In this document: positions 34,261-45,488 of the stretch, piece after piece | Numbering within the stretch: the first letter of the stretch is position 1 | Layout: the number at the start of each line of letters is the position of its first letter | Source of the DNA: a virus | Lineage: Duplodnaviria > Caudoviricetes | DNA: 64,000 nt | Virus record (IMG/VR): IMGVR_UViG_3300010965_000001 | Coordinates: 146,563-210,562 of that record | Reading direction: 5' to 3' (one strand) | Position numbers and translations under genes: made by a program | The notes under the pieces: model-generated | The model's database searches: none | What the model saw: the letters and a program-made list of their open reading frames with translations, nothing else | Told to the model about the DNA's origin: nothing

Positions 34261-34267
34261 ATTGTTG

Positions 34268-34350
34268 CTCATTAGGTAGGATTCGAACCTACAGGGGCGT
34301 TAGCCGTCCGCTTAACAGGCGGGGGAGTTTACCAGTTCCTCTACTAATGA
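34268..34350 (-). tRNA. tRNA-Asn(GUU) with long variable arm
   Basis: Loop CTGTTAA; V arm GGC-TAAC-GCC; U1:A72, G73. Confidence 0.85.
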
Positions 34351-34364
34351 ATATAAATTTTTTG

Positions 34365-34446
34365 TGCATTCGGAAGGAGTCGAACCCTCGTTGGATTTCT
34401 CCACCGCTTAAGAGGCGGGTGCATAATGCCGTTCTGCCACGAATGC
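34365..34446 (-). tRNA. tRNA-Lys(CUU) with long variable arm
   Basis: Loop CTCTTAA; V arm GGA-GAAA-TCC. Confidence 0.85.
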
Positions 34447-39387: not shown

Positions 39388-39389
39388 AG

Positions 39390-39471
39390 TGCAGTTACAG
39401 AGACTCGAACTCTGACGGATTACTCCACGGGCTTCTTAGACCCGCATGTTTACCAATTACATCATAACTGC
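39390..39471 (-). tRNA. tRNA-Leu(AAG)
   Basis: CGGGT-CTAAGAA-GCCCG; V arm. Confidence 0.9.
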
Positions 39472-40779: not shown

Positions 40780-40869
40780 TGGGGTGACGAGTGGAATTTG
40801 AATCCACGATAGGGTATTATCCCAACGAGGGCCACAACCTCGCGCAATTGACCGCTCTGCCATCGTCAC
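40780..40869 (-). tRNA. tRNA-His(GUG) with long variable arm
   Basis: CGAGG-TTGTGGC-CCTCG; V arm GGG-ATAATA-CCC; C73; encoded CCA; no genomic G-1. Confidence 0.85.
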
Positions 40870-42071: not shown

Positions 42072-42302
42072 TTGATTCTCCCATTAGTGTATATATAAAT
42101 ATGAGTGAATCAAAGTAAAACTATTATAAACGGAGCCGATGGGCGGGAATTTTAGTGTCCCGAACATACCGATGTAACATATCCCATCAAAAGGGATATT
42201 GCATGCGGATTCTTGTGCCTCATCGGCAAATTGAGGTTCTTTGTAAATTTTCGATTTCTGGTTCATGCACCTAAGTGAAATGTACGATTTACAAGAAACT
42301 TG

Positions 42303-42378
42303 TGGAAGATAAGGGATTTGAACCCTTCTGAAATCCTCATTGCAAGTGAGGTGTCCACCCCGAGCAGACCCATCCCCC
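42303..42378 (-). tRNA. tRNA-Ala(UGC)
   Basis: G3:U70; CCTCA-CTTGCAA-TGAGG. Confidence 0.9.
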
Positions 42379-42412
42379 AAGTTTATTTCTATTTTAAAGT
42401 AATTGGATTTTT

Positions 42413-42611
42413 GCGACATCAGAGTTATCGTCGCCCCACTTTTTACAACACCAACTACTTTTTTGCTTTGGTGTTACGCCAGTGGGGCTTGATAAAATTC
42501 AGGTGTATTACCGTTCGCAAACATGACTCCACTATCAGCAATGGATGCCGACTGCCATGAGCGTTTTGATTCGGTATGTAAATTCGTCTTTTTCACGATA
42601 ATCACCTTGAA
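42413..42611 (-). ncRNA. Unassigned structured RNA with its own promoter
   Basis: TTCAAGGTG/CACCTGAA, GCCCCACT/AGTGGGGC, AACACCA/TGGTGTT, GCGAC/GTCGC; TTGACG-N16-TATACT at 42640-42667. Confidence 0.5.
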
Positions 42612-42667
42612 TGAATTTGTTGTTTGTGTATATAATATAAGTATAAAGAAAAAAAATAAAACGTCAA

Positions 42668-42829
42668 TTATTTTACAACTTCCTTGACTTTTTTAATGTC
42701 ACGAACTGTCACCTTCCAGTCCCGCTTGGGAACGTAGATGTGCGTCTTGTCGAGTGTGACGCGGTGTTCTGCGGTATAATCCGAAACCTTAGTGATTTCG
42801 TTTGTTTCAATGGATTTAATGCACTTCAT
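42668..42829 (-). CDS. Small hypothetical protein
   Basis: 53 aa from MKCIKSIET; GGAG RBS. Confidence 0.6.
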   Translation of the reverse strand: MKCIKSIETNEITKVSDYTAEHRVTLDKTHIYVPKRDWKVTVRDIKKVKEVVK

Positions 42830-42955
42830 AATTGAATCTCCGTGATTAATGGTTGACAACTTTTTGAGATGAATAGAATTAACAACTTGTAAACTACTTG
42901 TAAACAATATAGGTATTGCTCCTATCAAGTGCTCATTGCAATTGTTTATAAAAAA

Positions 42956-43815
42956 TTAAAAGGTTGAGAGATTACACCTTCTACGCATTTCCTTTTCGTA
43001 GATTATAGTGACCTTGCGGGTCAGTTTCCTACTTTCTCCACCAGCGTTCAGCTCGAGTAGAAATGCATGACTTCCGTTGTTTTTAACGGTGACGGTACCG
43101 ATATGTATGAGCCTACTCAATCCTTGTCAATTCTCCCTGCCTTGCGAGCAGTTAATCCTTGCGGGGAATAGATGCAGACTTGAATTAAATTCCTACGCCT
43201 TGCGGGTTTCAGAACTCTCCATTCCTTTCGGTGGAGATTTAAGCCATTTTTGTTCTCATACATGACCACGACTTTGCTGTTTTTAATTGTCTTGGGATTT
43301 GAACCCAATCTTTAGTTCCATATACTAACGCTCAACCATTTGAGCTAAGACTGTGCAACTCACAAAAGACGTGCGTGGTCAGTGGTTCCATTCTCTTTTG
43401 GAAAACGATATGCCACACGCCCTGTATCTTTCGTCTGCTCGACTACTCAACGGATTTTCAAGATTTTGGTGCTTATGGAACAACCACACCAACACCAACC
43501 TCTTTCAATCTAAATAGAAGCCCTTATTTTGCATCACTCGGACAACTACTCTCCCCTTCATTTCTCGTTCATCGTCTCGTTTGGTATCTGCTTACTCGGC
43601 ACCACCCGCTAGTCCAGTCCTACGGAGTTACCCTCGGTCTGTTCGCAGCGAAACTTCTGACATACTTCCAGCAGGATTAGTGGCTGAAAGACTCCGAAAC
43701 TCGGTTTGCATAAGTGACCAATTGAGATTGGCGACGCCCTGTGAGCGGGTTAAGTCTTTTACCATATTACTACGGCTTATCTTCTCCCTTGCGGGAATGG
43801 ATGTCATACCACCCA
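42956..43815 (-). ncRNA. Large ornate ncRNA, GOLLD-like (~860 nt), with embedded tRNA-like module
   Basis: GC-richer, no credible CDS, five cGCAAg tetraloop hairpins, tandem promoters upstream, T-run end, flanks the tRNA array; family inferred from size and context only. Confidence 0.6.
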
Positions 43816-43844
43816 TTTTAAACTTTATAATTCAAAGAACAATT

Positions 43845-43984
43845 TTGTTTCAACTTGATGTATTAAATATACAAAACTTTTATTACAATGTCAAGCCTTA
43901 TTTCAAAATTCTTTTATTTCTTTTTCGTTACGACTTGTTTCAACTTGATGTATTAAATATACAAACTTTTTATTACAATGTCAA
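43845..43984 (-). repeat. Duplicated 50-bp promoter unit (90-bp period)
   Basis: 43845-43894 and 43935-43984 nearly identical; each carries TTGACA-N17-TATATT. Confidence 0.85.
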
Positions 43985-44272
43985 CGCCTTATTTGCTTTT
44001 TTATATAATGCGTTAAAAAGAATCATGTCCCACCCATTTATACTCTGCGCCGAGACCCCATTCACCTGACCAGCAATATGAATAGAATTCGTTTCATTCA
44101 ACATCCATTGCTCACTTGCTAAATTAAAGAATGCAAACTCTCGCATACTCTCATAAATAGGATTTGAACATTTTAGCAGAAATTCCGTTGTAACAGTTAT
44201 ATTGAACGTTGTGGTTTTGTTATTTTTTAGTAAATAAAACAAGTCCACAGTTTTCTCATATGCTGATTTCAT
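43973..44272 (-). CDS. Doubtful hypothetical protein
   Basis: 99 aa ORF, but the ATG lies only 2 nt from the -10 box of the promoter at 44275-44303. Confidence 0.3.
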   Translation of the reverse strand: MKSAYEKTVDLFYLLKNNKTTTFNITVTTEFLLKCSNPIYESMREFAFFNLASEQWMLNETNSIHIAGQVNGVSAQSINGWDMILFNALYKKANKALTL

Positions 44273-44274
44273 AT

Positions 44275-44303
44275 AATATAACCTTTATTTATTGGAAAGT
44301 CAA
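44275..44303 (-). promoter_or_regulatory. Sigma70-type promoter
   Basis: TTGACT-N17-TATATT. Confidence 0.75.
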
Positions 44304-44321
44304 CGCCTAAATAAAAATAAA

Positions 44322-44391
44322 TTCAAGGCGACCCGCTTACGGATTGGCTTACTCTATCGTCAGATTTTTCGGAGTCTGACCGAGCCTTGAA
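44322..44391 (-). ncRNA. 70-nt three-way-junction RNA
   Basis: TTCAAGGC/GCCTTGAA, GTCAGA/TCTGAC, CCG-TAAG-CGG; starts at the predicted TSS. Confidence 0.55.
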
Positions 44392-44403
44392 CTTTATGTA
44401 TTA

Positions 44404-44432
44404 AATATAGTAACTTTTTAGGCAAATGTCAA
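44404..44432 (-). promoter_or_regulatory. Sigma70-type promoter
   Basis: TTGACA-N17-TATATT. Confidence 0.8.
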
Positions 44433-44441
44433 CGCCTAAAA

Positions 44442-45488
44442 TTAACTTGTTGCTTCACCAAAATGAAGACAGAATGGGTGACCGTAATCCTGTGTTTCAC
44501 AAGGAGGAACTCTACCAAAAATAAGACACCAAATATGTTCTGGGTCAGTTGGCAGTGGGTCATATGATACAGTATTTCCATCTGCAACATACATACCACT
44601 TCCAGTAGGTTCCCATCCATAACTCAAATTCTCACCCCACCATATACGTGTTTTTGGATTTGGGTTGACCATAGTGATAGTGTGTTTAAGTCTTCCATAT
44701 GCACCAGGGCTTGTAGACCGCACATAAGTAACTACATCTGGAATACGTTGTTTAGTTATATTAAAATTATTATATGCAAAACATTGTCCATGATTTTGGC
44801 TTGTAATCATCGTGTTTACGAGAACATCCTCATCACCAAATAATGGGAGTGTAACTTTAACAGTCCATGTTTTTGAAGTAGTACACCAATCATCCGAAGA
44901 TAAGAGTTGATACGATGCACCGTTATTCGCAGCAATTGCCAGCGTGTACGGTTCATTGTCAATTCCATATCCAGAATTAGTAATGTCAAATGAATATATG
45001 TTTTCAATCATACCAGTATATTGACCAGTCTGAGTTGTAACACTTGACTGTAAAGTACGGTTAAAAACAGGAATCACATGTGTTGGTTCTGGTGGAGGTG
45101 GTGGAGTAAACAATGGATATTGAACGCCAACAAGCGTACATCCAACTACATACCAATTACCATAAATCACCACATATATCTGGCACGAACCTGGGGATGC
45201 ATTTGCCGTCAACGCTCTCCACGAATGTGTAGATGGATTACATCGTTGTGAGTAATAATTGTAAGTTCCACCCACTCCACCTGTTCCCTCTATGGCTTCG
45301 GGTCCATACGGCCAGAACACATCCGAATTGGCAATCGGAATATTTGGGAATGTGACATCGTACACTTCCGCTGTGAAATCAATTCTATATGATGTGTTTG
45401 TGTTTGTTACTGTTTGTACATACCGAACCCAATACTCCGCTTCACCCACGGGTGTACCACCTACCGCAACTGCTACTGCTTCTGTCAT
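44442..45488 (-). CDS. Hypothetical beta-rich (possibly virion) protein
   Basis: 348 aa; AGGAG RBS; TATTTATA upstream; Pro linker. Confidence 0.7.
   Translation of the reverse strand: MTEAVAVAVGGTPVGEAEYWVRYVQTVTNTNTSYRIDFTAEVYDVTFPNIPIANSDVFWPYGPEAIEGTGGVGGTYNYYSQRCNPSTHSWRALTANASPGSCQIYVVIYGNWYVVGCTLVGVQYPLFTPPPPPEPTHVIPVFNRTLQSSVTTQTGQYTGMIENIYSFDITNSGYGIDNEPYTLAIAANNGASYQLLSSDDWCTTSKTWTVKVTLPLFGDEDVLVNTMITSQNHGQCFAYNNFNITKQRIPDVVTYVRSTSPGAYGRLKHTITMVNPNPKTRIWWGENLSYGWEPTGSGMYVADGNTVSYDPLPTDPEHIWCLIFGRVPPCETQDYGHPFCLHFGEATS

Follow-up and report, generated by a model that had tools for sequence, protein, structure and literature searches.

The 210,562-bp IMG/VR record of an uncultivated freshwater phage very probably holds, on its minus strand, the complete gene for an RNA of about 900 nt from the cage-forming GOLLD family, which heads a tRNA/tmRNA island and carries a probably tethered tRNA-like module. 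Positions refer to the window, by which we mean the whole 64,000-nt stretch of this record that was analysed. A GOLLD with a tRNA-like unit in its linker is real but not new in kind, because tRNAs and pseudo-tRNAs in the GOLLD linker have already been published. What is new is a modest point: the linker module is common to nine members of one GOLLD subfamily, at the same site.

The Rfam covariance model of GOLLD (RF02032) matches positions 43425 to 42961 of the minus strand from end to end (model positions 1–416), with 180.5 bits against a gathering score of 150 and an E value of 4e-49 in the 64-kb window. The same match was returned when the whole genome record was searched. A sequence-only reading had called the tract GOLLD or a related giant RNA, perhaps a candidate new class. 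The first name holds up under cmsearch with the GOLLD model, and a full-length match above the gathering score makes the hedge unneeded. No Rfam match to ROOL was found in the window, and when the element was compared by blastn with 50,697 phage records, none matched. The features that the sequence-only reading had listed are all present, and all lie on the minus strand: GAAA loops, a T-run end, a GC-richer tract (G+C 0.41–0.50 inside, 0.25–0.37 in the flanks) and five cGCAAg hairpins. The hexamer CGCAAG occurs at 43013–18, 43141–46, 43158–63, 43199–204 and 43788–93, all five on the minus strand, compared with about 0.15 expected per 860 nt (Poisson P about 7e-7); the whole window has 13 matches, both strands counted. 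Hairpins with this tetraloop are about 30-fold enriched in the element.

The locus is phage-borne and lies beside tRNA genes. Downstream, on the strand that encodes GOLLD, ARAGORN places 33 further tRNA genes plus one for tmRNA, so the GOLLD RNA heads a tRNA island, the usual setting of the family. The free-standing tRNAs of the phage include a Leu(AAG) with A34, and the His, Asn and Lys tRNA genes are unusually long at 83–90 nt, which suggests extra arms or inserts (39389–39471, 40780–40869 and 34267–34446 for both observations). Searches with the flanking proteins (348 and 265 aa) found no related loci in IMG/VR. The 348-aa ORF, upstream of GOLLD at 44442–45488 on the minus strand, matched only itself among 5.8 billion proteins and has no Pfam or PHROG match.

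A small protein encoded on one strand has in its favour ORFs of 54–162 aa, which occur by chance on both strands. Against it, no ORF on either strand has a Pfam match, a search of 5.8 billion proteins returned no homologue of the 101-aa ORF, the tract matches the covariance model strongly, and the substitutions seen in a relative are compensatory in RNA helices. A protein gene is vanishingly improbable here; coding is excluded for practical purposes, and the tract is non-coding, as first described.

The architecture follows the family order (Table 1). P13 leads into an unpaired linker, named J13/15 after PMC12990946, and AACAGCAAAGUC at 43280–43270 corresponds to the family's AAAGCAAAGUC entry into the 3′ domain. 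Within the 3′ domain, a 10-pair long-range helix (43263–43254 with 43112–43103; nine of the ten pairs are standard) is accompanied by multiple hairpins with GNRA-type loops. This 3′ domain belongs to a less common GOLLD subfamily that shares UUAACUGCUCGCAAGGCAGG. A 97.7 %-identical relative, known from a 397-nt contig, differs from it at nine positions, which we placed by hand on the Rfam alignment and which represent one haplotype. Two of these changes form a compensatory replacement of C43148–G43140 by U–A. Among the other seven, four are one-sided and preserve their pairs as wobbles, one disrupts its pair and two fall at unpaired positions.

Table 1 Features of the GOLLD locus, in window coordinates.
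Feature	Position	Strand	Basis
Distal sigma-70-type promoter, TTGACA-17-TATATT	43956..43984	-	11/12 consensus matches
Proximal sigma-70-type promoter, TTGACA-17-TATATT	43866..43894	-	11/12 consensus matches
GOLLD 5′ domain, conserved core motifs in a lineage-specific sequence	43426..43859	-	Motifs A and B; compensatory changes
Variable 5′-domain hairpin, CCC/GGG stem	43733..43754	-	Seven clustered changes in relative
8-bp 5′-domain hairpin with covariation	43665..43690	-	Closing pair C43683–G43672 to U–A in relative
Motif B, conserved 5′-domain hairpin CCGAGGGUAACUCCGUAGG	43619..43637	-	Covariance model R1, only match in the window
5′-domain hairpin with covariation	43512..43551	-	Relative: 43546/43517 G–C to A–U, 43536/43527 U–A to C–G
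P13 hairpin, CAAAAG loop	43364..43425	-	Rfam GOLLD model positions 1–62
Variable linker J13/15	43264..43363	-	Unpaired model columns and 27-nt insert state
tRNA-like module	43285..43354	-	Rfam tRNA 41.1 bits (cut-off 29); ARAGORN tRNA-His atg
Conserved GOLLD 3′ domain	42961..43263	-	RF02032 alignment
U-rich tail UUUUAAUUUUUUAUAA after the last hairpin	42945..42960	-	Sequence; possible weak terminator

Upstream of the element, both promoters lie within repeat D2, a 50-nt direct repeat (43845–43894 and 43935–43984, 90 nt apart, 96 % identical). This tandem duplication comprises the GOLLD promoter and the first ~22 transcribed nucleotides. A third promoter of similar type (TTGACT-17-TATATT, 44275–44303) precedes a 99-aa ORF just upstream. 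From promoter spacing, transcription is predicted to begin near 43859, some 19 nt ahead of motif A of the 5′ domain (see below), and host sigma-70 RNA polymerase would transcribe the gene from the two tandem near-consensus promoters. With motif A at 43840 and the proximal start at ~43859, the element extends over about 42961–43859, or ~900 nt. The sequence-only reading had placed it at 42956–43815 (~860 nt), about 45 nt short at the 5′ boundary. The GOLLD model ends at 42961, where the RNA reads CAACCU and then UUUUAAUUUUUU; a terminator scan called no canonical terminator at this 3′ end.

Near-identical sequence is present in public sequencing runs, including three freshwater-sediment metatranscriptome libraries from one study. 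Contigs from these RNA libraries that fall on 42300–44500 are in part identical to the window and in part 85–98 % identical to it. They cover 42990–43853 piecewise, as contigs that show no strand, ends or level and that may contain DNA. None was found on the flanks 42300–42965 and 43854–44500, where lack of cover proves nothing. The 397-nt contig (43074–43470) bridges P13, the tRNA-like module and the 3′ domain, so an unexcised form exists in that library.

The Rfam model leaves about 400 nt upstream of P13 undescribed. If GOLLD were the 465-nt matched stretch alone, these 400 nt would be an unrelated leader or a separate RNA, and several results are of the kind this would predict. No significant alignment of the 5′ domain was obtained with nhmmer or sensitive blastn against some 45 IMG/VR GOLLD loci and 11 more from metagenomes, and a conserved 21-mer from the domain had no match in IMG/VR or metagenome contigs. 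Its MFE z-score is not significant either, at −1.44 (opposite strand, +0.69). Against a separate origin stand two short motifs at canonical spacing. Motif A is the 5′-terminal GUUCUUUGA, which starts at 43840, 415 nt before P13, compared with 412–496 nt in about 28 other GOLLDs. Motif B, at 43637–43619, lies 210 nt before P13, compared with 262–295 nt in canonical members. When 29 canonical (‘lake-type’) 5′ domains were combined into a profile, it gave three collinear matches, to motif A, motif B and P13, and within the 5′ domain it detected these short motifs only.

GAGGGYAAC, which forms the core of motif B, is found only once in the window. The fetched loci, about 1 Mb in all, contain it 24 times, and about 20 of these sites fall in tabulated GOLLD 5′ regions. 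A covariance model, R1, built from 14 canonical GOLLD sequences around motif B gave a single match in the window, on motif B itself (14.8 bits), with an E value of 0.14 over 128 kb and of roughly 4e-4 when the search space is restricted to the 400-nt domain. R1 matched the 19-nt motif alone; the flanking helices did not align. Three further observations tie the upstream part to P13: helices upstream of P13 covary, no promoter-like site is found on the minus strand between 43866 and P13, and a 414-nt RNA-library contig (43389–43802) spans the junction of P13 with the 5′ domain. An unrelated leader or separate RNA is therefore highly improbable.

Natural variation supplies the covariation. The 414-nt contig comes from a relative that is ~92 % identical and carries 32 substitutions, and the same changes recur in a second sample on a contig of 267 nt. 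Folding the reference alone by minimum free energy, we counted three to four compensatory double changes against 0.25–0.28 expected from random placement (P 0.0004–0.002), in a single haplotype rebuilt from 28 of its 32 substitutions and drawn from one study whose RNA libraries can contain DNA. At least three 5′-domain hairpins carry such changes. In the hairpin at 43512–43551 (Table 1), the relative also replaces G·U by A–U at 43537/43526 and U·G by C–G at 43512/43551. In the variable hairpin with the CCC/GGG stem, the stem is remodelled and extended, including a change of 43754/43735 from C–G to G–C. Since motifs A and B are shared while their surroundings cannot be aligned, the core motifs appear to be familial and the peripheral helices lineage-specific. 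The resemblance of the 5′ domain to the structured P1–P12 region that precedes P13 in the family is seen in its size of ~400 nt, two motifs and covarying hairpins, not helix by helix. GOLLD 5′ domains are less conserved than the 3′ domain and evolve separately from it (bioRxiv 10.1101/2024.12.08.627333), and the domain described here agrees with that.

Before the next promoter, at 44319–44394 on the minus strand, lies a 76-nt candidate three-way-junction RNA with an MFE z-score of −2.77. Its first hairpin has in its loop AGACUCCGAAA, the exact complement of UUUCGGAGUCU at 43689–43699 (minus strand) in the 5′ domain of GOLLD; neither this 11-mer nor its complement occurs a second time in the window. 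Within the UUUCGGAGUCU target, G43692 is changed to U in the ~92 %-identical GOLLD relative.

The tRNA-like module lies wholly within J13/15, where the GOLLD model partly absorbs it in an insert state. Both the Rfam tRNA model and ARAGORN call it, at 43285–43354; the sequence-only reading had recognised the unit and set its limits at 43289–43351. Cargo of this kind in the linker has already been described for GOLLD (PMC6582537; bioRxiv 10.1101/2024.12.08.627333; PMC12990946). The fold is that of a cloverleaf, with all three arms (D, anticodon and T) and the nucleotides of the elbow in place: a 4-bp D stem, a D loop with GG, a 5-bp anticodon stem, a 7-nt anticodon loop (AUAUGGA) with U33 and the nominal anticodon AUG (A34), and a T loop UUCAAAU on a T stem of only 4 bp. 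In the acceptor, pairs 1, 4, 5, 6 and 7 form, with C–A at 2:71 and A–A at 3:70. These are five of seven pairs with four contiguous, in keeping with the original description of a 4-bp acceptor. The module thus lacks the 7-bp acceptor and 5-bp T stem that make up a 12-bp coaxial stack, and it encodes no CCA. Identity as tRNA-His depends on G−1 and C73, where the module has C at −1 and U at the discriminator position 73.

One explanation holds that the module is a working tRNA gene and GOLLD its precursor or store; RNase P, together with a nuclease acting at the 3′ side, would free a tRNA to be CCA-tailed and charged. The score above the Rfam tRNA cut-off, the ARAGORN call, the D-loop GG, U33, the 7-nt anticodon loop and the T loop are all as expected of such a gene. 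RNase P can cut substrates with imperfect acceptors, and a storage role has been raised by Kretsch et al. and in a 2026 review, which proposes ‘inhibited storage’ of the linker tRNA (PMC12990946). In addition, one relative in the same subfamily (L123) has six of seven acceptor pairs and an encoded CCA. The mismatches at 2:71 and 3:70, the short T stem and the absence of G−1 and C73 argue against release. Decoding argues the same way, since an AUG anticodon with A34 would read only CAU or, if deaminated to inosine, would misread CAA (Gln), and the phage already carries a regular tRNA-His(GUG). Five of nine subfamily modules have no scorable acceptor, and a pseudo-tRNA inside the GOLLD of M. aubagnense was not detected as a separate RNA (Behra et al. 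2019, PMC6582537). We consider a working tRNA improbable for this phage. For the family, release is conceivable in view of L123, a near-canonical tRNA-Lys (CUU) and the one module that looks ordinary, and of L128, whose acceptor has 7 bp, all A/U.

The subfamily defined by UUAACUGCUCGCAAGGCAGG gives the module a comparative setting. Scans for this sequence returned two records from IMG/VR together with eleven stretches of metagenome, among them duplicates of each other or of earlier loci. Nine subfamily members have a tRNA-model match at a common relative position, some 70 nt downstream of where P13 starts; the nine modules comprise the one described here and those of eight relatives, with contig L125 contributing two tandem GOLLDs. 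When the nine are aligned, the D, anticodon and T arms are kept, with compensatory changes in nine of 14 pairs, and RNAalifold predicts no consensus acceptor stem. The tRNA alignment is local and leaves out the acceptor in five of the nine linker modules (model positions 3–68, 3–68, 4–67, 6–65 and 7–64), compared with two of 141 free-standing tRNAs from the same loci (Fisher P 4e-6). The anticodons across the nine are AUG, UGU, AUU, an 8-nt loop, UUU, UUU, UAG, UCA and CUU. A trend towards A34-U35 anticodons, seen in three of ten modules (P about 0.02), was too weak to keep, and the free tRNA-Leu(AAG) of this phage also has A34.

Several individual loci deserve mention. The tandem GOLLDs (L125:395-1805, CEUN01427126.1; duplicate L131) are both complete and each has a linker module, one with the 8-nt anticodon loop and the other Lys-UUU. 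In L126:714-774, the linker module has the anticodon loop CUUCAAA (UCA, opal-reading) and a largely unpaired acceptor. A truncated tRNA-model match (positions 9–63) lies at L048:7820-7873, 20 nt past the 3′ end of the GOLLD of another phage.

A second explanation treats the module as a functionless passenger, a tRNA copy that recombined from the neighbouring array into a tolerant linker and is now decaying. No part of GOLLD is less constrained than the linker (Kretsch et al.), linker tRNAs are missing from most of the roughly 42 IMG/VR GOLLDs, anticodons differ among the relatives, and one linker copy, in L122, is clearly degenerate, with the T loop UGCGAUA and no U33. Against decay, nine subfamily members have a module at one and the same position, with arms and elbow preserved by compensatory changes even though the acceptor is lost. 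The module is also at most 69 % identical to the phage’s own tRNAs, which leaves no recent copy among them. It is unchanged in the 97.7 %-identical and 100 %-identical relatives, a weak point given that only 1.6 changes were expected. Contig joints and loose ends (43283/43357, 43306 and 43340) are a hint of a different module, or of none, in more distant relatives. Taken on both sides, a passenger seems somewhat unlikely.

Tentatively, we favour a third possibility, that the module stays tethered as a tRNA mimic which binds or baits a tRNA-recognising factor, instead of being released as a decoding tRNA. The truncated acceptor, the 4-bp T stem, the missing G−1/C73 and CCA, and A34 are the grounds for this reading. 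By homology to two GOLLDs studied by cryo-EM, the RNA probably self-assembles into a nanocage of 12–14 protomers in which the 5′ domains would form the caps and the linker would point into the lumen. The two are GOLLD env-38, a 14-mer (Kretsch et al., bioRxiv 10.1101/2024.12.08.627333), and the Streptococcus agalactiae GOLLD, given as a 12-mer in PMC12990946. As published, the linker is directed towards the inside of the cage and in some cases contains tRNAs (bioRxiv 10.1101/2024.12.08.627333). With one module per protomer, the lumen would be lined with a dozen tethered tRNA-like L-shapes.

A more specific proposal is that in this subfamily the module is neither cargo nor a stored tRNA but an acceptor-less, integral tRNA mimic, present in a dozen copies per cage, whose changeable anticodon loop would follow the tRNAs that host anticodon nucleases, or other defences directed at tRNAs, attack. 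The cage may then act as a multivalent decoy or sponge that complements the phage’s tRNA and RNA-repair island. The anticodons that can be cited for it are Lys UUU/CUU, A34-U35 His/Asn/Asp, Thr, Leu and opal. We regard this as a long shot.

Comparison with known systems places the element within GOLLD and apart from other tRNA-like RNAs. It resembles described GOLLDs in having P13, linker and 3′ domain matched at full length, a 5′ domain of ~400 nt with the GUUCUUUGA and GAGGGUAAC..GUAG motifs, a total of ~900 nt, a variable linker and a phage-borne position at a tRNA island. It differs in a 5′ domain that, apart from the two short motifs, cannot be aligned to the canonical ‘lake’ type, and in a 3′ domain of the rarer UUAACUGCUCGCAAGGCAGG subfamily; cages are known from cryo-EM of two other members. 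The closest parallels to the module are the linker tRNAs of Mycolicibacterium, where a tRNA-Phe lies in J13/15 (Morgado 2020, as relayed in the 2026 review, PMC12990946), and of M. aubagnense. Those also place a tRNA-shaped unit between P13 and the 3′ domain, and ours is likewise pseudo-tRNA-like. Unlike them, it belongs to a freshwater phage and has a nominal AUG anticodon, in a subfamily whose acceptor is usually truncated and whose anticodon varies.

ROOL, a nanocage RNA of phages and prophages, is likewise a large phage RNA near tRNA islands and forms a cage with an internal disordered linker, to be compared with that of GOLLD (Kretsch et al.), but its sequence and fold are unrelated to those of GOLLD. 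The tRNA-like domain of tmRNA, that of YrlA/Y-RNA and the 3′ tRNA-like structures of viruses are L-shaped mimics embedded in a larger RNA for recognition, a role that the module may share by analogy. Those mimics keep an acceptor end on which enzymes act, whereas the module is internal and continues into GOLLD at both ends.

GOLLD, which reportedly goes back to Weinberg and colleagues in 2009, is among the largest natural RNAs for which the literature gives no function, and the structure of its cage is a recent result. The locus described here adds no new principle. It provides a clean natural case in which each protomer has a folded, probably unreleasable tRNA-like domain at a site that would face the lumen. 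Eight relatives with a common architecture and different anticodons offer a handle on what the cage holds or binds.
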